This document shows, piece by piece, positions 171 through 59,739 of a stretch of DNA of 64,000 nucleotides. The stretch is taken from contig OZ220733.1 of assembly GCA_965116875.1 (NCBI GenBank), forward strand, positions 5,120,001 to 5,184,000, in the 5' to 3' direction. Every line of letters starts with the position of its first letter. Positions within the stretch are counted from its first letter, which is position 1. Origin of the DNA: Candidatus Latescibacterota bacterium (lineage in GTDB: Bacteria; Latescibacterota; UBA2968; GCA-2709665). The notes under the pieces were generated by a model. It was not told where the DNA came from and made no database searches. It worked only from the letters and a program-made list of their open reading frames with translations. The position numbers were made by a program, and so were the translations under genes.

Positions 171-360
171 CCCTTCGACACGCTCCGGTCAGCGCCTTCG
201 ACCCTTCGACAATCCTTCGGCCCTTCGACAGGCTCAGGGACCACAGGCTTGCTTCGACAGGCCACTTCGACAAGCTCAGTGCAAGCAGCACAAGCAGGAC
301 AACGGCTCAGGGACCACAGGCTCAGTGCAAGCAGCACAAGCAGGGCAAGTCCTCTGGCGG
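171..360. repeat. Cluster of nested/tandem REP-like units (CCCTTCGACAGGCTCAGGG / CACTTCGACAAGCTCAGTGCAAGC)
   Basis: CTTCGAC recurs about six times in 171-271; GGCTCAGGGACCACAGG and GCTCAGTGCAAGCAGCACAAGCAGG each occur twice; related single units at 21128-21170 and 47054-47077. Confidence 0.85.
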
Positions 361-422: not shown

Positions 423-2093
423 ATGACGAGCGATGCCAGAACGACGGATGGCGCCCATGCAGAATGGGTGATTTCGCGTATGGTCAGGCCTGCCGAGTTG
501 GAGAATTCCGGGCATATCGCGGAGAGCAAGGGCAAGGGGCCGGAGGTCTGGGCGATGTTCTGCGCGACGATACGCGGCGACCTGGAAGCGATTCAGAGTC
601 TTGCCGGGCGCAACCCAGACCTGATCCGTTGCGTACACTACTACACCCAACCCATAAAGTTCGCGGTGCGCGAGGGTCACGCGGAGGTCGTCCGCTACCT
701 CCTGAAAAAGGGCGCCAGTCCTTTCTACCGGACCCGGATTTTTCACGACTCGCTGGTCAACCTGGCGTCCGACCGGGAACACGACCATATCGTGAAAATC
801 CTGGAAGCAGCCATCAGCGAACGGAGCGGCGGGTACACGCGGGATACGGAACCCCTTGCGAATGAACTCATCGACGCTGTTCGCGCGCGCGATTATGAAA
901 AAACAGCACATATTGTCCGAAATTCTCCTGAACGGGTCAAATTGAGCAACGCGAACGGGACCACGGCGCTTCACGAGGCGGTTTCGATCGGCGACTTCCA
1001 CCTGACTCGACTGCTCCTGGATAGCGGCGCCGATATTCAGGCGCAGGCCGGCACGGGCTTCAGCACCGGGCAGAAGGCCATCCACGTCGCGCTCTACGCC
1101 GGATGGCGGGACCGGATTCTCATACGCAAGAGAGCGGCGCTGGCGGGCTATCTGGTCGCCCGGGGCTCGGACTACAATATTCTCGTGGCCTCCGCGTTCG
1201 GCGACTCCCGGCGGGTCCGGGAATACCTGGACGCGGAACCATCGCTGGCAAACTTCCGCGACACCTGCGACCGGTTGCCGATTTCCATCGCGGCCAGCCG
1301 GGGCCATCACGACATCGTGGAACTTCTGCTCGAAAGGGGCGCCGATCCAAACGCGCGGGAACCGGACGCACCCCGAGGAAAAGCCCTGCTCGAGGCGGCA
1401 TTCCATGGACACACCGCCACCGCCCGGTTGCTTCTCGAACACGGCGCCGACCCCAACGGCAACGTGGACTCCACCGGCACGGCATTCCACCATGCCAGAA
1501 AGAACCCCGAGCTCTATGAATTGATGAAATCGTACGGCGGCAGGTCGGATATCATCCCCCCGATCAGCGCCGCGGTCAACGCCAACAACCTGGAGGGCGT
1601 TGAGAGAATACTCACCCAAAACCCCGAAGAGATCGCGAACGCGAAACTGGGCAATCCCGCACGGCGCGGCAGGCTGGAAATGGTGAAGCTGCTCCTGAAG
1701 CACGGCGCGACCATGACAGACAAGAACCACGGCTCGTTCTTCCGGGTCTACGAAACGGCGAAATACCTGCTTGAAAACGGGGCCAATCCAAATTACCGGA
1801 ACTGGCAGGGGATCTCTTCCCTCCACTCGGTCGCCCACGAGGGAGACGTCCGGAGAGCCGGTCTACTGCTGGACTACGGCGCGGAGATCAACGCGATCGA
1901 ACCCGAGTACTGTGCGACGCCGCTGGGGCTGGCGTGCCGGGCGGGTCATGCGCCTATGGTGGCGTTTCTCCTCACACGGGGAGCAGACGCCGGCCTGCCG
2001 CACGAACATCCGTGGGCGAGGCCCCTCACCTGGGCGGAAAAGAAAGATCACCCTGAGGTCGCCCGGATTCTTCGGGACCACGGGGCCAGGTAG
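423..2093 (+). CDS. Ankyrin repeat protein
   Basis: Multiple ankyrin motifs (GTTALHEAV, LLERGADPNA, LLEHGADPNG, TPLGLACRAGH); ORF is open from 378, ATG 423 chosen because GAGGA precedes it. Confidence 0.9.
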   Translation: MTSDARTTDGAHAEWVISRMVRPAELENSGHIAESKGKGPEVWAMFCATIRGDLEAIQSLAGRNPDLIRCVHYYTQPIKFAVREGHAEVVRYLLKKGASPFYRTRIFHDSLVNLASDREHDHIVKILEAAISERSGGYTRDTEPLANELIDAVRARDYEKTAHIVRNSPERVKLSNANGTTALHEAVSIGDFHLTRLLLDSGADIQAQAGTGFSTGQKAIHVALYAGWRDRILIRKRAALAGYLVARGSDYNILVASAFGDSRRVREYLDAEPSLANFRDTCDRLPISIAASRGHHDIVELLLERGADPNAREPDAPRGKALLEAAFHGHTATARLLLEHGADPNGNVDSTGTAFHHARKNPELYELMKSYGGRSDIIPPISAAVNANNLEGVERILTQNPEEIANAKLGNPARRGRLEMVKLLLKHGATMTDKNHGSFFRVYETAKYLLENGANPNYRNWQGISSLHSVAHEGDVRRAGLLLDYGAEINAIEPEYCATPLGLACRAGHAPMVAFLLTRGADAGLPHEHPWARPLTWAEKKDHPEVARILRDHGAR

Positions 2094-20980: not shown

Positions 20981-21127
20981 ACGTGCCGCCTCTCAGGTAT
21001 CGACACGTGGAAACCGCACGGGGTTGATCCGATGCTGCAGTAGATCCTTCGTCGGCTTGGGGGTCGGCACAAAATGATCGTCTGGTGTCAAGTAAAACCT
21101 ATGCACTTCGCGGACGTTGCACCCAGG

Positions 21128-21170
21128 CCCCTTCGACAGGCTCAGGGCAAGTCCTCTGGATGACAGTGGG
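21128..21170. repeat. REP-like unit CCCTTCGACAGGCTCAGGGCAAGTCCTCTGG
   Basis: Same units as the 221-357 cluster. Confidence 0.75.
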
Positions 21171-34895: not shown

Positions 34896-35300
34896 AATCA
34901 GGCTTCCTCCGAAATCCGTTGCGTTTTCATTTTCCCGCACCGCCGGAACCGGCTGTGGCGGAGCGCGAAATATACCCGCATTGCCGGATAGACACAAGAA
35001 AATTAACACATCGCAGGCATTTAGACGGCTCCCGTGCCCCAACCTGCGTTTTCACTGCGGCGCGCGTCGTGTCGGCTTCGCCCCCGGTTACTTCCCCGCG
35101 TTCACTGCCGGGTCATATAGATTTCCTGTTGACTTGCTTTCGCATATCTTATAGTTTTCCCACCGTGATCGACCGATTCAAGCTGCATAATGACCATCTG
35201 TTCGCGCCCATGGTATCCCTCTGCCATACTGCCGCTGCAAACGACCGCCATCGCTGTCACGTCCGGAAGAATTCACCCATTCCGAATTGGGAACCAATAC

Positions 35301-36185
35301 GTGCTGACAGAAAGCCTCAAGGTCTTTTGTGACCTTATAGAAACCCAGAGCTTCTCCAAGACCGCCCTGCTCAACGACGTCAGCCAGTCGGCCGTCAGTC
35401 AGCAACTCAAGAGCATCGAAAGACGACAGGGCCGGCAGCTGGTACAGCGGGAGAAAAGACGGCTCTCTCTTACCGCGGAAGGCGAAATCTTCTACGGCTG
35501 CGCCCGGGAGATCGTCCGGCGCTTCGATGAAATGCAACACCGACTGCAGGCGTTGAGCGGAGAAGTCTCGGGTACCGTACGGCTATCCGCCATTTACAGC
35601 GTGGGCATGATGGAACTGGCCCGGTTTCTGAAAACGTACATCAAGAGCCATCCCAAAGTCAATTTGCGATTGTCGTATGCCCAGGCGAGGAATATCTACG
35701 ACAACGTGGCAAGCGGCCAGATCGACCTGGGGGTCGTCGCCTTTCCCCGCTCCCGGCGAAACGTGGACGCGGTCCCGTTTGCGGAAGACCCGATGGTGGT
35801 GATCTGCTCCGTATCCAACCCGCTCAGCGTGCGGCCGAGTGTCAGCCCGGGTGAACTGGCCGAACTGCCGCTCATCCTGTTCACGCCCGAATTCCCTACC
35901 AGGACGGCGGTCGACCGGTACTTCAGGAAACACGGCGTGACCCTCCGGCCGGTCATGGAACTGGATCACATCGCCACCCTGATCCACGCCGTCGAGGTGG
36001 ATCTGGGAATCTCCCTGGTGCCTTCATCGGCGCTGCGACAGGGCCGCTTCAAAGATACCCTCAGGGCGCTTCCGCTTCGGGGAAAGCCGTTGATTCGCAC
36101 GCTGGGCGTCCTTCAGCGCAAGGGCCGCAGTCATTCCATGGCCACCCGAAGACTGTACGAAACGCTGACCCGTACCTGTCCATAA
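35301..36185 (+). CDS. LysR family transcriptional regulator
   Basis: SFSKTA..VSQSAVSQQLKSIE..LTAEGE HTH; substrate-binding domain follows. Confidence 0.9.
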   Translation: MLTESLKVFCDLIETQSFSKTALLNDVSQSAVSQQLKSIERRQGRQLVQREKRRLSLTAEGEIFYGCAREIVRRFDEMQHRLQALSGEVSGTVRLSAIYSVGMMELARFLKTYIKSHPKVNLRLSYAQARNIYDNVASGQIDLGVVAFPRSRRNVDAVPFAEDPMVVICSVSNPLSVRPSVSPGELAELPLILFTPEFPTRTAVDRYFRKHGVTLRPVMELDHIATLIHAVEVDLGISLVPSSALRQGRFKDTLRALPLRGKPLIRTLGVLQRKGRSHSMATRRLYETLTRTCP

Positions 36186-36192
36186 ACCGCTG

Positions 36193-36472
36193 CAAAAAGC
36201 CTGAATGTGGGTAGAGGTGAAACGGTAGAGGGTAGAGATTGCCCGCCTTGTGAGGCTTCTTTTCGTGCCGGAGGCAAGGAGGGATCAATTAGCTGGCAAG
36301 GATATCTTCTACCGTCTTACGTCTCCCGTCTACCCGCTTCAAAGGGTCCGGGGGGAGAGGTCCCCTTCACGACCAGTGACCCGGTTAATCCCGGTAATCC
36401 GCCTTCTAATCGCCTTTATTAACTGACACTTATTTGAAATAACGTCCACGAGAACTTACGAATCAACGTTAA
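36193..36472 (+). mobile_element. MITE-like element family 1, copy A (left end truncated; core in orientation 1)
   Basis: Colinear similarity with 40822-41143 and the reverse complement of 59405-59739; right end GAATCAACGTTAA. Confidence 0.8.
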
Positions 36473-36484
36473 TAAGGAGCCCTG

Positions 36485-37045
36485 ATGTCACTACCGGGCA
36501 GGGATGAAGCGTTTCAGCTGTTGTGCGAACACACGAGTAATCCGAACCTCGTCAAGCATATGCTGGCTGTCGAAGCGGCGATGCGGGCCTACGCCAGAAA
36601 ATTCGGACAGGACGAGAATCTGTGGGGCATCACCGGGTTGCTGCATGATTTCGACTACGAAAAACACCCCAGCCCCGAAGAGCATCCGATGGTCGGCGTC
36701 CGTATCCTTACGGAAAGAGGATATCCCGCGGACGTCATCCACGCCATCAAATCTCACGCCACGTACCTGGGTGTGCCCAGGAACAGCCTGCTGGACAGGG
36801 CCCTGTTCGCCGTGGATGAACTCACCGGGTTTATCGTCGCCGTTACGCTGATGCAGCCTTCCAGAAAGCTGGCGGACCTGAAGACCTCGTCCGTACGCAG
36901 GAAGATGAAACAGAAAGGATTCGCGCGGGCGGTCAGCCGGGACGACATCCTCACGGGGGCGTCGGAACTCGGGGTGGACCTGGACGAACACATCGCGTTC
37001 GTGCGTGACGCAATGGCCGGCATCGCGGACGAACTGGATCTATAG
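36485..37045 (+). CDS. HD-domain (HDIG) metal-dependent phosphohydrolase
   Basis: KHMLAVE, GLLHDFDYE, AIKSH, AVDELTG. Confidence 0.9.
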   Translation: MSLPGRDEAFQLLCEHTSNPNLVKHMLAVEAAMRAYARKFGQDENLWGITGLLHDFDYEKHPSPEEHPMVGVRILTERGYPADVIHAIKSHATYLGVPRNSLLDRALFAVDELTGFIVAVTLMQPSRKLADLKTSSVRRKMKQKGFARAVSRDDILTGASELGVDLDEHIAFVRDAMAGIADELDL

Positions 37046-37055
37046 CAGCCCGTTG

Positions 37056-37083
37056 AAAAAGCCCATCCGCACGCCGGATGGGC
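37056..37083 (-). terminator. Intrinsic terminator between convergent genes
   Basis: GCCCATCC-loop-GGATGGGC with a T-run on the minus strand. Confidence 0.6.
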
Positions 37084-37087
37084 CCGC

Positions 37088-40000
37088 CTACCGCTTCAAT
37101 ACGTAGAGTACCCCGTCCCCGGAAGCCGCCGCGATTTCCGGAAACCCGTCGCCGTCCACGTCCGCCGCGGCCATTGTCAACAGGGGGCCGCCGGTTTTGA
37201 ATCGCGCCAGCGTCCGTCCATCGCCGTTGGCAAGCAGATGCACGACGCCATCCACGGTCCCCGCGGCGACCTCGGGCCTCCCGTCGCCGTCGAAATCGCC
37301 CACGGCAATACAACGCACGACCTCCCCGAGGTCCGCTCGCCATCCAACGGTCCTTCCGTCTCCCTTGATCACGTACACGTTGAAACTCATCGAGGATGCC
37401 ACCACCTCATCCAGCCCGTCCCCGTCCATATCGGCCGTGACGACCTGCGTCACCTCGTCACCCGTATTGAACTGCCAGAGGAGCCTGCCGTCTGCGCCAA
37501 GGGTGTGAATATGCGTATCGGCCCCCGCGAAGACCACTTCCTTCATACCGTCCCCGTCCAGATCACCCGCCGCCGTGGAATTGGTCCGGGGGCCGGTCCT
37601 GGGATGGTAGGACCATCGGATCGCACCGCTGCCGTCAATGCAGTGCCAGCGATGGTATTCCGTTCCGGCAATCACCTCGTCCCTGCCGTCACCATCGATA
37701 TCCGCCGCGCAGCCCTGGGTGGATGAGTGTACGGTCATCTGATACCAGAGCAACTCTCCCTCGTGAGTGAACGCGTAGTAACGCCAGGACTCGGCTCCGG
37801 CGATCACCTCCAGCTTGCCGTCCCCGTTGATGTCTCCGGCAAATACGGTTTTCAGCATTGGTTTTCGGTAATACAAAGGGATTTCATATTCCCACTTCAC
37901 CTTACCCCCTGCGCTGAGGACGTAGACCTTCGTATCCGCGGACCCCGCAATTACCCGCGTCCTGCCGTCGCCCTCCAGGTCCGCGGCCCAAACGGATCTC
38001 ACCTCGCCCCCCGTGCGGAAACGCCAGAGCGCGGCGCCATCCCGCAGCGCACAGACGGACGCGCCCCGGCCGCCCGCCACCAGGACGTCCGATCCGTCCC
38101 GCAGAAGGTCTGCCGCGTACAACGAGAGAAACGGGCCCTCTTCCCCATAGGTCCACAGCGGCCTCAGTCGACCCGTGCGGCCCCGGCCGGGTCGGATCAA
38201 CTCCGGCTGCGACACATTCGAGCGCACCGAACGCGTGGCCGCCCTGCGCAGAGACATCACGGCGTCCGGCGGCACGCGGAACCGATGATCGCCCGCGGGC
38301 AATGCAAAAGACACCATGTCGCCGGAAACGGATGCATCCACGGCCTTTCCGTCCACAGTAACGCCCGAACGCCCACCCGACCACAGGCACAGCCTGGTAC
38401 GCTGCCGGACGGCCGCCCGACCCTCACCCCGAACCGGATCGTACTCCAAGGACACCGGCTGTTCCGAACGCAATTCCACACCTTCCCACGCGACCCCCGT
38501 GCCATCCGCGAACGCGAATCGGGACGGAGAGACCATGAACTGCGCCGCGGCCACGGTGGGACCGCCTGGAATCTCGACCGGTTCGCCGGGTTCTCCGGTG
38601 CCGGCGTAAACAACTTCCTCACCACCGTCAACCCGGACGACGCCATCCGTGAGACGCGTCAACTTCAAACTCCGCGTGGCCGGTTCACTGCCGCAATAGA
38701 GAAGGTTGAAGAACCGATACGTCTCACGCGCCTTCAATCGCACGTCCACGATCTGCTGAAGGATTCGCACCACCGGTTCCGCGTGCGGATATTCCGTCCA
38801 GTTCCTGCCCGTCTCCCCGTCGTCTTCCAGCTTCAGCGAAGGTCCCTTCAATCCCTGGATGAAAAACCGCTCTCCGTCCTGCTCCACCTTCAGACCGCCG
38901 CCGCGCAATGCCACGTCGCCCAGCGTCTGCCAGATCGCTCTGAAACCGAAGTCATCTTCCGACAGGGCTTCCATCTCATCGATCACCAGGAAGAACCGGC
39001 CCCGGTCCCAGAGGATGTTCCGGTGCCAGTCCACTCCGCTGTAGTCGCGCAGCGTGGTCTCGGAGAAGCCCGATCGGTCGAAGTTCGCTGCGCGCTCGAG
39101 CTCCACGTACGGCGGAATCTCGGCGGATTGTCCGTTCCTGAAAACCAGGACGCCGTTGTGAAACTTGGGCAGCGACTTGATATAGTCGCAATCGGCCAGC
39201 CAGATCCGCCGCCGCTGGGTAATGCGGCAAATCGAATTTCCGTCGTAATGTTTGTGCCCGCCGTTCGAGAGCCCGTCCAGGAACAGATATTGCGCCATCG
39301 GATCGTACCCGTCACGGAATACCACTTTATCGACGGTCTTCTTCAATGGCAGATGGTCCTTCCCCTGATTCGACGCGTAATACAGCGGATCCACCGGAAA
39401 GACCTGTGTGCCGTCCAGGTCCGCGGGCTCGACCGGGGTTACCCGTCTGTGGTATTCGTAGGCTGCGAATCGAGGCTCAACCTCCGTTTTCTTGTCGAGC
39501 ATCCACTGATATCGACCGTCGCCCGTCGCAAAAACAGCAGCCCGCAGATAGGGCAGTTCACTCCACCATCCAAAAGGCGAGGCATTGTCTCCATAGGGCA
39601 GCGCATAGCCCAGATTGTCCGTTGTCAGGACGGCATAGTCCGCGGCTTTCCGGGCGCACCCGTTCTCGAAAAAGGTCATATCTCCGCTGGAGAGTGAATA
39701 CCTGGTCAGATGGTAATGGGTCAGCCACTGGTACCCGCTGCAATCTTCGTGTGGCTTGAACGCTTTTGCCTGGTACCGGAAACACGCGTCGGACAGCGCC
39801 AGCCAGGCGTCCGCTTCCGGAATTCCGTAATACTTCCGGAAATAGGCGCCGGCATAGTGCAGCCCCAATGCGGCAAACGTGGTATGGTTGTGCCGCACGT
39901 GAGGAATTTCCATATCGCCCACGTGAGACACGCAATCGCTGACGAATTCGAACAGGATCCGGGTAATCCGCAGCCGGTCGTCGTCGGAGATCACCGGGCT

Positions 40001-40786
40001 TTCCTCTACGAGGTCCCACCCGGGCATCACCTTGTACAGCGCGAAATCCGCATCGAATCCCCAGATGCCGCCGTAGTTGTCCGGATCCGACATCGCGTGC
40101 CGGTACATCCGATAGACGAGGCGTTTGTAGATCTCCGCGTAGACGTCTTTTCCGGTCAGCCCGTACAGGAGCCCCCGCTCGCCGATCCGGCCCCAGAGGC
40201 CCGTATGTTCTCCCCGGCGCAACGCCTCCTCCGCGGCAGCCATCTCCGAATCCACGTCCGGCTCGTCTTCGAGCCCGGGAATCTTCAGCGCGTCGGACCC
40301 GAACCTCACCTCGAACAGAGGTCCGGTCGAAAGCGTGTCCCCCTTTTCCAATTTCGCCGAGAATCGCCTCACCGCGGCACGTACGCCCTCCAGGTCGCTT
40401 CCCAGCAGTCCCACGGCGTTCTTCCCATTCCCCCACGGGTCGTGTATCGACTGAACGAGATATCCCCCGCGCCCCGGATACAGGTCGTCCGCGGGGGTAT
40501 AGTTGTATCCGTAGAGACCGAAGACCACGGGATTCGTATTCACGTTTCCCAGCAGAATGAGATTCCGCTCCGGCGGCGCGGCCGTTTCCGTCACAATGGG
40601 GACATCAGCAGAGGAAAGATCGCGGATCTTTGCCTGCAATTCGGATGCCAGCGCCCGGTAGCGCGCATCTTCGGGACAGACGATGGCCGACGCGGCTCTG
40701 CCCCTGTCCACCAGCACCGTATCCGGGTAGCTTTTTTTCGGACGTTTCAAACTTCCGGGAGACCCCTTTTTGTCCGGCATGGGCAC
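37088..40786 (-). CDS. Large protein: lyase/heparinase-like core plus C-terminal FG-GAP beta-propeller repeats
   Basis: Repeated ADxDGDGxxEVIAG motifs; HNH, GHKHYDGNSI and WHRNILW heparinase-like motifs. Confidence 0.8.
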   Translation of the reverse strand: MPMPDKKGSPGSLKRPKKSYPDTVLVDRGRAASAIVCPEDARYRALASELQAKIRDLSSADVPIVTETAAPPERNLILLGNVNTNPVVFGLYGYNYTPADDLYPGRGGYLVQSIHDPWGNGKNAVGLLGSDLEGVRAAVRRFSAKLEKGDTLSTGPLFEVRFGSDALKIPGLEDEPDVDSEMAAAEEALRRGEHTGLWGRIGERGLLYGLTGKDVYAEIYKRLVYRMYRHAMSDPDNYGGIWGFDADFALYKVMPGWDLVEESPVISDDDRLRITRILFEFVSDCVSHVGDMEIPHVRHNHTTFAALGLHYAGAYFRKYYGIPEADAWLALSDACFRYQAKAFKPHEDCSGYQWLTHYHLTRYSLSSGDMTFFENGCARKAADYAVLTTDNLGYALPYGDNASPFGWWSELPYLRAAVFATGDGRYQWMLDKKTEVEPRFAAYEYHRRVTPVEPADLDGTQVFPVDPLYYASNQGKDHLPLKKTVDKVVFRDGYDPMAQYLFLDGLSNGGHKHYDGNSICRITQRRRIWLADCDYIKSLPKFHNGVLVFRNGQSAEIPPYVELERAANFDRSGFSETTLRDYSGVDWHRNILWDRGRFFLVIDEMEALSEDDFGFRAIWQTLGDVALRGGGLKVEQDGERFFIQGLKGPSLKLEDDGETGRNWTEYPHAEPVVRILQQIVDVRLKARETYRFFNLLYCGSEPATRSLKLTRLTDGVVRVDGGEEVVYAGTGEPGEPVEIPGGPTVAAAQFMVSPSRFAFADGTGVAWEGVELRSEQPVSLEYDPVRGEGRAAVRQRTRLCLWSGGRSGVTVDGKAVDASVSGDMVSFALPAGDHRFRVPPDAVMSLRRAATRSVRSNVSQPELIRPGRGRTGRLRPLWTYGEEGPFLSLYAADLLRDGSDVLVAGGRGASVCALRDGAALWRFRTGGEVRSVWAADLEGDGRTRVIAGSADTKVYVLSAGGKVKWEYEIPLYYRKPMLKTVFAGDINGDGKLEVIAGAESWRYYAFTHEGELLWYQMTVHSSTQGCAADIDGDGRDEVIAGTEYHRWHCIDGSGAIRWSYHPRTGPRTNSTAAGDLDGDGMKEVVFAGADTHIHTLGADGRLLWQFNTGDEVTQVVTADMDGDGLDEVVASSMSFNVYVIKGDGRTVGWRADLGEVVRCIAVGDFDGDGRPEVAAGTVDGVVHLLANGDGRTLARFKTGGPLLTMAAADVDGDGFPEIAAASGDGVLYVLKR

Positions 40787-40821
40787 GTCCTTTCGAATCC
40801 GTCATCTGGCAAGAAGCCGTA

Positions 40822-41143
40822 TTAACCTCAATTCCAAAAAAAAAACTACAGTCAGATTGACCACAAAAAGCCTGAATTCGGGTAGAAGGTAGAGGGAAGA
40901 CGGGAGAAGAAACCCTTGCCCGCGACTCTATTCCTTCTTGCCTCCGGCAGGAGAAGAAACTCCACAAGGCAGGAAATCTCTCCCCTCTATCGTCTCCCGT
41001 CTACCCAATTCTAGGGGGCCCGGGGGAGAGGTCCTGAACACTTCCAGTAACCTGGTGTATCCTGGGTATCCGCCGTTGAATCGCCTTTATTAACGAACAC
41101 ATATTCGAATGAACGTCCACGAAAACTTACGAATCAAGGTTAA
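40822..41143 (+). mobile_element. MITE-like element family 1, copy B (core in orientation 2)
   Basis: TIRs TTAACCTCAATTC / GAATCAAGGTTAA (11/13). Confidence 0.85.
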
Positions 41144-41835
41144 ATTTCCACGAACTTTTCAAACAGGAACAGTCCGATCAACAGAAAAACCAGCCCGGAG
41201 ACAACCGTGTATGCCATCCATGCGAGGCCGGCTGGAAGACCCGCAGGAAGATCGGACACGAGATAACCGGCCAGTGCGAAATACAGGATCACGCACGACA
41301 CGAACGAAGCGACCGTCACCAGACCCCTCAGCCGTGATGCCGTGTACCTGGCGCCTTCCACGGCCGTAACAATGCCAAGCGTCAGGAACGTGTAACATCC
41401 CAGGAACCCGGCGGTGTATCCGTAAACCGACGCCGTCGTGACACCGAAGAACCCCAGAATCCGAGATACGTCTTCCCCGGGGGCGCGCGCCACCACGGCA
41501 TAGACGCCTGCGCCGGCAATCGAGAACAGCAGAAGGCCGATACTCAGGATCGCGGCGTATTTGCAGAGGCACACGACCGCCGCCCGGACGGGGAGCGCAA
41601 AGAGCAGATAGGTTGTATTGCCTCGCCATTCCCCGTTGAACGAGGAAGCCAGCAGGAATGGCAGGACAGACATGATCGCCCAGAGGGGAAACGCTGAAAA
41701 AAACAGGGCGAGCACGTGCGTTTCAACGGACAACAGGACCCAGCCCTGCACCACCAGGGTGCCGATGGCAAGGATGCCGGATACATTCCTCGCGTCCCTC
41801 AACTCCTTAAAATACAGAGCACAAAACATCTTCAT
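41140..41835 (-). CDS. ABC-2 type transporter permease
   Basis: About six TM helices, KELR near the N-terminus, YLLFALPVR motif; follows an ABC ATPase gene. Confidence 0.75.
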   Translation of the reverse strand: MKMFCALYFKELRDARNVSGILAIGTLVVQGWVLLSVETHVLALFFSAFPLWAIMSVLPFLLASSFNGEWRGNTTYLLFALPVRAAVVCLCKYAAILSIGLLLFSIAGAGVYAVVARAPGEDVSRILGFFGVTTASVYGYTAGFLGCYTFLTLGIVTAVEGARYTASRLRGLVTVASFVSCVILYFALAGYLVSDLPAGLPAGLAWMAYTVVSGLVFLLIGLFLFEKFVEI

Positions 41836-41854
41836 ACGCTCTTGGCCTCGTGCA

Positions 41855-42544
41855 TCAGGCAACCGCCATTTCGAAGATCTCGGACAGAGACTTCCCGTGT
41901 TCCTGCTGCAATTGGTCCGTCCGACCCGCGGCAAACGTCTCACCGTCGCGCAGAAGCAGGACATCTTCGATAAACGGTTCCACGTCGGATACCAGGTGGG
42001 TTGAAATCAACACCGTCTGCCCGGAATGCCGAAACTGGTTGAAGAGACTGTCCAGTATGCGCCTCCGGGACGGCGGATCGATACCCCCCAGGGGTTCGTC
42101 CATCAGCACCACTTCAGGGGACCACGAGAATGCGGAGACCACCTTCAGCCTTGCCCGCTGTCCTCGCGAGAGGGCGCCCACCTTGCGGTCTTCCGGCAGA
42201 TTCATGAAATCCAGCAGCCTCCTTGCCCGTCCCGCGTCCCAGGTGGCACGAAAGGACGAGAGGAAATCCAGCTGTTCTCCCACCTTCATCCACGAATAAA
42301 ACGGATCGACTTCAGGCAGATAGGATACCACCGGCTTTGTGGCAAACCCGGTCGGGGTCTCGCCGATTTGCGCCCGCCCCCGGGTGGGCCGCGTCACGCC
42401 CGCCAGAATCCGGAACAACGTACTCTTTCCGCTTCCGTTTTCACCCAGCACGCCAAGCACCCTGCCACGAGCCACCGTCAGCGACACGCCTCTGAGCGCC
42501 CACGAACCAGGGTATCTCTTCCATAGGTCTTCGACGCAAACCAT
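41855..42544 (-). CDS. ABC transporter ATP-binding protein
   Basis: GENGSGKS, LSRGQ, LMDEP, STH. Confidence 0.95.
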   Translation of the reverse strand: MVCVEDLWKRYPGSWALRGVSLTVARGRVLGVLGENGSGKSTLFRILAGVTRPTRGRAQIGETPTGFATKPVVSYLPEVDPFYSWMKVGEQLDFLSSFRATWDAGRARRLLDFMNLPEDRKVGALSRGQRARLKVVSAFSWSPEVVLMDEPLGGIDPPSRRRILDSLFNQFRHSGQTVLISTHLVSDVEPFIEDVLLLRDGETFAAGRTDQLQQEHGKSLSEIFEMAVA

Positions 42545-46914: not shown

Positions 46915-47153
46915 GTGAGTCAGATTGCCTGAATTCGGCCGACCAGAAGCAGCAAAAACTGCCATCAGCGCTCAGCCGTCAGCTTGAATCAAAAACCCGA
47001 TCAATTGACGTCAGCGCTGTGATGAGTCGGAACCGGAACGGGCGCAATGCGGGCACTTCGACAAGCTCAACGCAAGCTGCACGGACAGCGCAGGCAACAC
47101 AGCGGTACGGGACGACTCGCCGCGACAATCGTGACGATCTTCAGAAACTCTAG
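46915..47153. mobile_element. Degenerate MITE family 2 copy with an inserted REP-like unit, between cusB and cusA
   Basis: TTGCCTGAATTCGGCCG and AGCGCAGGCAACACAGCGGTACGGGACGACTCGCCGCGACAATCGTGACGA resemble the reverse complement of 23983-24151; REP-like unit at 47054-47077. Confidence 0.6.
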
Positions 47154-59404: not shown

Positions 59405-59739
59405 TTAACCTCGATTGGCAACTCTTCGTGAACGTTAGTTCGAATGTGTGCCAGTAGGCGATTGGACGGCGGATTACCAGGATCCACCAGATCACGGAAC
59501 GTGAACGGAACCTCTCGCCCGGTCCCCCAGAAGCGGGTAGACGGGAGAAGGGAGAGGGGAGAGATTACCTGCCTTGTGAGGATTCTCTTCGCGCCGAAGG
59601 CAAGGCGGGAAAACATCCTGGGCGAGGATTTCTTCTACCGTCTCACCTCTTCCGTCTCCCCGCATTTCATCTACCGTCTCCCCGCATTCAGGCTCTTTGT
59701 GGCCAATTTGACCGATGTCTTTTTTTCAATTGAGGTTGA
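59405..59739 (-). mobile_element. MITE-like element family 1, copy C (core in orientation 2)
   Basis: TIRs TTAACCTCGATTG / CAATTGAGGTTGA (11/13); internal tandem duplication of CCGTCTCCCCGCATT. Confidence 0.85.

Follow-up and report, generated by a model that had tools for sequence, protein, structure and literature searches.

Copies A, B and C of the repeat described here are copies of a non-coding, TTAA/TTAG-duplicating MITE which carries a smaller repeat unit composed of inverted heptamer arms and a core. B and C represent the common form. In a second lineage (A-type), of which A is a member, the unit has the reverse orientation and is enclosed by what is left of outer arms. The inverted block of A is a complete unit of this reversed lineage, which likely had a rare origin and was propagated by MITE transposition and ectopic conversion. 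The orientation is inherited with the copy and not toggled. The difference in orientation is inherited and probably not a working genetic switch, since orientation is linked to the sequence subfamily, agrees in most comparisons of orthologous copies and is the same in contigs of several sequencing runs, which together indicate a stable, inherited state.

The window, i.e. the whole stretch of 64,000 nt that was analyzed, covers positions 5,120,001-5,184,000 of a single 5.45-Mb contig (G+C 59.6%). The genome under study is termed G000, and the genomes of relatives are termed G003-G014. Positions within copies A, B and C refer to the window; other loci are named by their position in G000. The sequencing runs containing the stretch were mostly labelled as sponge metagenomes; one was labelled as a coral-reef metagenome and two were labelled with coded organisms.

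The original prediction had described three copies with colinear flanks, in which the centre of A is the reverse complement of the centre of B, and both repeat pairs and BLASTN confirmed this. In repeat pair I2, positions 36208-36336 of A are inverted relative to 40879-41007 of B (129 nt, 80% complementary), and in pair D1, positions 36308-36472 of A are direct with 40979-41143 of B (165 nt, 79%). Therefore, the centres of A and B are inverted relative to each other and the right flanks are colinear. Copy C had been described as matching B relative to its flanks, and it does: positions 36209-36337 of A are direct on the plus strand with 59535-59663 of C (pair D2, 79%), and positions 36344-36415 in the right flank of A are inverted relative to 59456-59527 of C (pair I3), so that copy C has the arrangement of B, on the minus strand. 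In BLASTN, the A core matched the B core on the opposite strand only, with 79.2% identity over 77 nt (E 1e-12). The slot predicted for the core was correct, but its size had to be corrected to 77 nt (36234-36310), and the inverted block extends further than the core and takes in the arms (about 36208-36336).

A palindromic core, which would have made the orientation meaningless, does not agree with the data. The core was matched on both strands in none of 100 genomic position bins (BLASTN, G000) and is therefore not palindromic, and the A core showed 80.5% identity to its positional ortholog in G010 when reversed vs. 53.8% in forward direction. The inverted heptamer arms are real, as had been proposed. 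The heptamer-dimer GGNAGANGKNAGA has 13 matches in the 64-kb window, all of them within the arms of A, B and C, with 0.21 matches expected and none of 100 shuffles reaching 13. The features of the three copies are listed in Table 1.

Table 1. Positions of the modules, arms and cores of copies A, B and C in the window.
Feature	Position	Strand	Basis
Copy A, L-module remnant (..AAAAAGCCTGAATG)	36193..36207	+	Sequence; L-junction motif at genome 5156207
Copy A, L-side heptamer arm (right arm of the unit in core orientation)	36208..36233	+	Arm motif; comparison with G010 solo arm
Copy A, 77-nt core, non-palindromic, reversed relative to L and R	36234..36310	-	nhmmer, minus strand, E 2e-24
Copy A, R-side heptamer arm (left arm of the unit in core orientation), GCGGGTAGACGGGAGACGTAAGACGGT	36311..36336	+	Sequence comparison
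Copy A, modules S (GGGTCCGGGGGGAGAGGTCC) and R, up to the right terminal repeat (..CGAATCAACG)	36337..36468	+	Sequence
Copy B, complete 314-bp type III MITE, TIRs CCTCAATTCC / CGAATCAAGG	40826..41139	+	Genome pair 5160826-5161139, TTAA/TTAA
Copy B, 77-nt core, in the orientation found most often with respect to L and R ('B-like')	40905..40981	+	BLASTN; L-junction survey
Copy C, complete type III MITE, ends CCTCAATTG..CAATCGAGG	59409..59735	-	Sequence; precise absence in relatives
Copy C, 77-nt core, B-like with respect to L and R of the same copy	59560..59636	-	Repeat pairs; BLASTN

In copy A, a deletion which reaches as far as the stop codon of the upstream ORF 35190..36185 has removed the remaining part of L, and G010 has a full L at the orthologous locus. 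The L-side arm is composed of an outer 'solo arm' remnant (36208-36222) and an inner arm (36223-36233). The core is a member of the 'AGAAGATATCC' subfamily, and the last 25/27 nt of the left arm in core orientation are identical to the copies at 890579, 2271659 and 4322504. After the R module, the TTAA target (36469-36472) is followed by the start of ORF 36485..37045. Copy B is flanked by TTAA on both sides (40822-40825 and 41140-41143) and consists of L (40826-40878), the two arms (40879-40904 and 40982-41006) around the core, and S+R (41007-41139). In copy C, L and the unit are separated by an additional solo arm; the flanks of this copy are TTAA (59405-59408) and TCAA (59736-59739), the latter a mutated copy.

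The unit of about 135 nt is formed by two arms of about 27 nt each, composed of GGNAGAN heptamers, around the conserved 77-nt core. In the consensus of the unit, conservation extends from ..AAATGCGGGGAGACGG.. to ..CCGTCTACCCGCTT, with the core as the best-conserved part, and the unit ends AAA(G/T)GCGG..CCGCTTTT are themselves inverted. In G000, BLASTN detected the core at 95 loci (72 full length), and an nhmmer search with a profile HMM yielded 126 matches (111 full length). The R module was found at 105 loci in G000 (BLASTN). An R module lies at a distance of ≤400 nt from the core at 17 of the 95 core loci; the other 78 are without R module, and arms plus core are therefore a repeat family of their own. 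The unit is present in all 14 genomes of the same genus, in none of four genomes from other genera of the family, and in one of 12 genomes of a neighbouring family. Also, the repeats form mosaics: solo arms, a second kind of core between arms (short core of 25 nt, CACCAGGTGGTGGGG..), the S motif and the modules L and R are combined in numerous ways.

As one of two explanations, the original prediction had considered a smaller hairpin element which inserts into the MITE in either orientation. The data largely bear out this view, as the 78 of 95 loci without R module reveal a separate family and the arms of A move with the core. As for a putative mobility of its own, neither a target-site duplication nor a clean empty site was found for the unit alone at the loci examined, where relatives have other sequence instead. 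Also, the arms had been expected to form a long stem. The arms are there, but folding of the unit as single-stranded DNA gave a predicted structure of moderate stability (-20 to -27 kcal/mol, z -1.9 to -3.3), in which two of the seven positions of the arm heptamer are unpaired; the core alone showed no unusual fold (z about +0.5). In the arm heptamers, AGA and GG are kept and two of seven positions vary regardless of pairing. Agreement between the arms amounts to 26-51% at these two positions and to 85-99% elsewhere. A match of mir-483 to the hairpin of copy B was obtained in an Rfam search of positions 35000-42000 (E ≤ 1), but with 25.4 bits vs. a gathering score of 60 and an E value of 0.26 it was rejected as a chance match on a hairpin.

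The frame between L and R has the properties of a MITE. All 14 intact CCTYRATT.. terminal-repeat pairs in G000 have identical 4-nt flanks, ten with TTAA and four with TTAG, and the elements have sizes of 189-192 bp (11 elements), 214 bp, 314 bp (copy B) and 395 bp. The MITE contains no gene, occurs at about 100 loci and has terminal inverted repeats of 9-10 nt. It is modular, with three left halves on one right half, and only type III, in which the unit is located between L and the S-R module, carries the unit. Copy C is exactly absent in G004, G005, G008, G012 and G014, which have a single TTAA at the site GGA-TTAA-CTAC. Likewise, the MITE at 1740086 is absent in G004, G008 and G014, and the MITE at 890579 is absent in G005 and G008. 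Empty sites with TTAA were found for locus A in G005 and G003, and for copy B in G006 (..CAG-TTAA-ATTTCC). Thus, terminal inverted repeats, a target-site duplication of fixed length, and presence or absence with exact boundaries were all observed. These features, together with a size of 190-395 bp and the lack of a gene, are those of prokaryotic MITEs. Unlike such MITEs, the frame has three left halves on one right half and no autonomous partner in G000, where the members of a terminal-repeat pair are never separated by more than 400 bp and none of 14 DDE_Tnp_1 genes is flanked by MITE ends. The 4-bp target TTAA/TTAG is similar to the Py-T-A-Pu tetranucleotide described as being duplicated by IS5 (PMC5493358). 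As no autonomous partner with MITE ends is found in G000, membership in the IS5 group is a matter of resemblance in the target only.

Orientation of the unit is linked to its sequence. L-linked units number 26 in G000; 19 of them have the B-like and seven the A-like orientation. Five of the seven A-like units are 87-99% identical to the A core, and no B-like copy exceeds 82%. The A subfamily has 20 further copies in six other genomes, which are 88-95% identical to A, and 13 of these 20 are A-like. Over all seven genomes, including the five G000 copies, 18 of the 25 copies are A-like, none is B-like and seven are without L. The typical A-type order is L, outer arm remnant, CCAAAAG, complete reversed unit, and TTTT or S motif. 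As the reversed arrangement is common to the subfamily, it did not arise by accident at one locus and is a type that has been propagated. Another, diverged A-like group is formed by the copies at 2974632 and 3263820, and the copy at 3777863 has the same arrangement by eye; hence, the A-like arrangement arose more than once. Between non-orthologous loci of different species, identity within the A subfamily reaches up to 94.9%, vs. 89-94% for the flanking gene. This high identity across loci could result from conversion or recent spread, and so could selection on a putative function.

The two arms of a unit can be distinguished: counted outward from the core, position 4 is occupied by C in 94% of the left arms, and the corresponding base is G in 60% of the right arms. 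This asymmetry was expressed as a leave-one-out log-odds score over the 72 full copies, and the score was positive in 68 of them. Copy A has a value of +10.5, equal to the median; therefore, the arms of A move with the core and the whole unit is reversed. Four copies had a negative score and were candidates for a flip of the core alone. Three of them were rejected: at 3391217 the score is an artefact of an IS inside the arm, at 1459926 a resident outer arm is located beside an A-type unit, and the copy at 1568393 is degenerate and has the same orientation in G004. The copy at 1472980 is thus the sole core-only flip among the four.

For the comparison of orthologous loci, 11 unselected unit loci were used in 25 comparisons with G004, G005, G008, G010 and G014, which are kin and thus not independent. 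At 1472980, an ordinary BLAST match to G010 runs straight through the inverted core. Therefore, all counted comparisons were rechecked and orientation was scored by the core HMM plus BLAST of the flanks. G010 at 1864547 was left out (23 nt of flank, partial core), and the loci 1459926 and 1568393, which had been picked for their odd arm score, are outside the 25 comparisons. Orientation was alike in 22 of the 25 comparisons and opposite in three, namely at locus A, 1472980 and 890579, in each case vs. G010. With three of 11 unselected loci differing over a flank divergence of roughly 11%, a change of orientation is not negligible at this distance. All 25 scored ortholog copies had the canonical relation of arms and core, and a 26th core match was too short to be scored. 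These events were polarized by the arm-asymmetry score and not by a rooted tree.

The three loci with opposite orientation represent different cases. At 1472980, the flanks are in place, the arms are 24/28 and 22/27 identical between G000 and G010, and the core alone is reversed; the arm log-odds score is -7.6 in G000 (non-canonical) and +12.8 in G010 (canonical). The inverted segment is thus exactly bounded by arms that stay in place, which is not the case at A, where the arms go with the core. At 890579, G000 and G014 have an A-type interior and G010 has a plain B-type unit, with a common TTAA and an orthologous L. A similar exchange is seen at 1459926. This locus is A-type in G000; in G004 and G008, its core is truncated, B-like and from a different subfamily. 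Together with locus A, interiors are swapped at three MITE loci.

The TTAA that marks locus A is also occupied in G010, by a full L, a solo arm, a B-like unit, S and R. In G004, only the final 87 nt are left, and G005, G008, G009 and G012 have 69-76 nt without the element. Taken on its own, the comparison with G010 might suggest that an inherited B-like unit was turned round in situ in the G000 lineage via its own inverted arms, by recombination or template switching and without a dedicated recombinase. In accordance with this, all modules are found at the same TTAA with the unit in opposite orientation, and the A unit, when reversed, aligns end to end with the G010 unit, arms included (80.3%, 106/132). 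The S-R flank is 86.7% identical (124/143), and the gap to the value of the unit is not significant. The clean core-only flip between retained arms at 1472980 also points in this direction, as do documented cases of template-switch spacer inversion and hairpin-linked small inversions (PMC8604942, PMC12371153). Nevertheless, we consider a fresh inversion at locus A rather unlikely. Copies at 20 other loci in six other genomes share 88-95% identity with the A core vs. 80.5% for its positional ortholog, and the reversal is common to the whole subfamily (18 A-like to 0 B-like), which makes one old event plus spread more economical than a fresh flip for A. In addition, the MITE has reused TTAA in opposite orientation at locus C in G010 and at locus 1740086 in G005, so that G000 and G010 may not share one insertion. 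For locus A itself, in-situ inversion, replacement and independent insertion at the same TTAA are all compatible with the data.

For the propagated reversed lineage, we propose the following course. The A-type may have arisen from the B-type on rare occasions, by inversion of the whole unit via its own inverted arms through recombination or template switching; alternatively, a unit may have been re-inserted. Afterwards, the A-type would have been spread by transposition of the MITE and also by ectopic gene conversion between MITE copies, anchored in L, arms and S. Such conversion would explain why the interior of one orthologous MITE insertion is A-type or B-type depending on the species, and also why A-type units are highly similar across loci and species.

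The core-only flip at 1472980 would fit a recombinase-free inversion of the spacer between inverted repeats. According to the reports on small inversions at chloroplast hairpins and on template-switch spacer inversion, no recombinase is needed for either process (PMC12371153, PMC8604942). At 1472980 in G000 vs. G010, as in these cases, a segment bounded by arms is reversed with arms and flanks in place. In contrast to the inverted spacers reported there, which measure 4-50 bp in chloroplast DNA and 2-5 bp in genes of yeast (PMC12371153, PMC8604942), the spacer here has 77 nt, the arms are imperfect (5/7 positions), and mostly the whole unit is reversed or the sequence type is swapped.

The assembly at locus A was checked with contigs of three sequencing runs from three studies, in which the unique left flank runs into the core. 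The orientation of A was found throughout, with 0 differences in the contigs of X1 and X2 and 6 differences in X3 (one contig spanning 36154-36324); rare variants drop out of such contigs. Assemblers can err at repeats with inverted arms, and A might accordingly be a misjoin or a one-off. With contigs of three runs in agreement, A is not an assembly artefact, and the same arrangement is found in seven of the 26 L-linked units of G000 and in 13 of the 20 subfamily copies elsewhere, so that the chance of an error at A is practically negligible. As a separate observation, one X3 contig skips 78 nt over the core (36229 to 36308) and has 35 nt on its shorter side; it may represent the alternative orientation or another locus and is too short to be assigned.

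As stated in the original prediction, no invertase gene is visible in the window. The domain search in the G000 genome gave no match for Resolvase and two matches for Phage_integrase, at 598590 and 1605173, whereas the window is located at 5.12-5.18 Mb. An IS110-family element of 1592 bp (PF01548 and PF02371) is present in six copies, all of which begin with arm heptamers. Three different units contain one of these copies each, always in the canonical left arm and always 9 nt away from the core. Members of the IS110 or IS3 families target REPs, and the IS110-family element at one fixed arm position in three units is similar to such REP-targeting elements. Insertion at one arm position implies that the genome has a recombinase which reads the arms.

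The original prediction had also considered an invertible switch carried on the MITE. In its programmed form, a recombinase acting in trans (a tyrosine recombinase or an IS110-family DEDD recombinase) would flip the core or the unit reversibly and thereby change the expression of neighbouring genes. The segment is bounded by inverted arms, both orientations exist, the IS110-family element is inserted at a fixed position in the arms, and copies A and C end 12-27 nt ahead of a start codon. Yet a switch is highly improbable, as orientation tracks the sequence subfamily and 68 of 72 copies keep one relation of arms and core. For a switch, about half of the orthologous comparisons would be expected to agree, and the 22 of 25 found alike correspond to P(≥22) = 8e-5 if the comparisons are independent, which those among kin are not. 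The contigs of the three runs, from which rare variants drop out, have one orientation at A. Also, the genome domain search and the ORF lists revealed no recombinase gene beside A, B or C; a serine recombinase was not found and the two tyrosine recombinases are far off. Scans of A and B detected neither promoter-like nor terminator-like sites. The core-only flip at 1472980 vs. G010 is the grain of truth in the switch idea.

A broader reading is that the heptamer arms are recombination sites for a trans-acting factor, with the IS110-family DEDD recombinase as candidate, and that the more than 100 units are cassettes whose centres are inverted or exchanged (77-nt core, 25-nt short core, A-type for B-type). 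We regard this as very doubtful. If true, the units would not be passive repeats, and this uncultured sponge symbiont would possess a guided system, dispersed over the genome, for the inversion and exchange of cassettes.

Another reading takes the unit as a REPIN-type REP doublet, which would be moved by a single RAYT-like Y1 transposase and would land either way. Like REPINs, the unit is extragenic, hairpin-forming, about 100-135 nt long, present in tens to hundreds of copies (more than 100 in the case of the unit of about 135 nt), restricted to a lineage, here one genus, and vertically inherited at orthologous sites. Also, one ORF of 153 aa has a marginal Y1_Tnp match just above the cut-off (23.4-23.7 bits). 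However, this RAYT-like gene is located in an array of a different repeat (GGGTGGAGCGGACATTCCTGTCTGC), and no heptamer-dimer motif was found within 1.5 kb of it. REPINs are described as having conserved arms and a variable spacer (10.1101/2021.07.10.451892), whereas in the unit the 77-nt centre is most conserved and the arms are tandem arrays of heptamers and not short palindromes. A REPIN-type origin is therefore improbable. A further resemblance exists to the BIMEs of enterobacteria, as units, solo arms, short core, S motif and MITE modules are combined in variable order. Unlike in BIMEs, two adjacent units (905320/905471) have the same orientation and do not alternate, and the sequences are unrelated.

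A narrow literature search (Latescibacteria, sponge, transposable; nested palindromic bacterial MITEs) found no description of a heptamer-armed repeat family. The repeats are a new family of a known kind, i.e. genus-wide heptamer-armed palindromic repeats nested in a TTAA/TTAG MITE of sponge-associated Latescibacterota. As a switch, the system would have been remarkable; the evidence is against it, and current understanding is not overturned. For the analysis of such repeats, caution is required, as ordinary BLAST alignments pass straight through inversions of this type. In this family, the homing of an IS110-family element to a repeat arm is clearly seen, and the family is a natural series for measuring the rate at which arm-bounded segments as long as 77 nt are reversed or replaced by ectopic conversion.

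The right half of the MITEs, an R module of about 110 nt, is common to types I, II and III and was found at 105 loci genome-wide; the family is modular. In copies A and C of the window, a start codon is located 12-27 nt beyond the end of R.

Positions of MITE types and other repeat-associated features (G000, this genome)
Feature	Size	Position	Remarks
Type I MITE	~190 bp	e.g. 3336216-3336405, 5093334-5093523	11 intact copies
Type II MITE	214 bp		carries common R module
Type III MITE			hairpin-bearing; carries common R module
IS110-family element	1592 bp	C1:3391291-3392882 (locus L164)	one of six copies
Other five IS110-family copies		3382695, 3415440, 1774058, 1776390, 5315215
RAYT-like ORF	153 aa	ORF 1195..1656 in locus L001 (C1:2122277-2125405)	Y1_Tnp match
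Dispersed repeat GGCCACTTCGACAAGCTCAG..		window 260-357, 21126-21157, 47051-47082

Some arms of the hairpin units are themselves occupied by another element. Three of the six IS110-family copies are inserted into the left arm of three different units, at an identical position 9 nt from the core, and all six begin with TCT(A/C)CCGTCTAC, which is the arm heptamer sequence. With its transposase of 370 aa (domains PF01548 and PF02371), this element looks like an IS targeting the repeat arms. Between heptamer arms of this kind, a second, short 'core' CACCAGGTGGTGGGGCGGGGTGTGGTCC was also detected (e.g. G000 1096572-1096660 and 3072505-3072560; locus L078 in the relative G004), and in front of many units stands a solo arm to which 6-9 nt from the start of a core, AGAAGAAAT or AGAGAT, are attached. 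Such arrangements suggest that nesting, or unequal exchange within arms, has occurred repeatedly.

At G000 1472980 (L064/L082), compared with G010:C5, the inverted 77-nt core was spanned by one unbroken BLAST alignment of 2451 nt with 88% identity; therefore, the orientation of such elements cannot be scored from colinear matches.

The RAYT-like ORF, whose Y1_Tnp score of 23.4 bits is barely above the cut-off, lies within an array of a repeat distinct from the hairpin unit, GGGTGGAGCGGACATTCCTGTCTGC, which gave about 20 BLAST matches across the genome with both direct and inverted copies. ORF and array possibly represent a separate REP/RAYT system.

Comparison between species revealed two TTAA sites, each with the MITE oppositely oriented: that of copy C (window 59405-59739) versus L052 in G010, and G000 1739926-1740245 versus G005:C26:54365-54674. 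Both are without MITE in further species, and these sites are insertion hot spots occupied independently more than once. The position orthologous to copy B is taken by the dispersed repeat GGCCACTTCGACAAGCTCAG.. in G004, G005 and G008 (L054-L056). Several repeat families turn over the intergenic regions in this genus.
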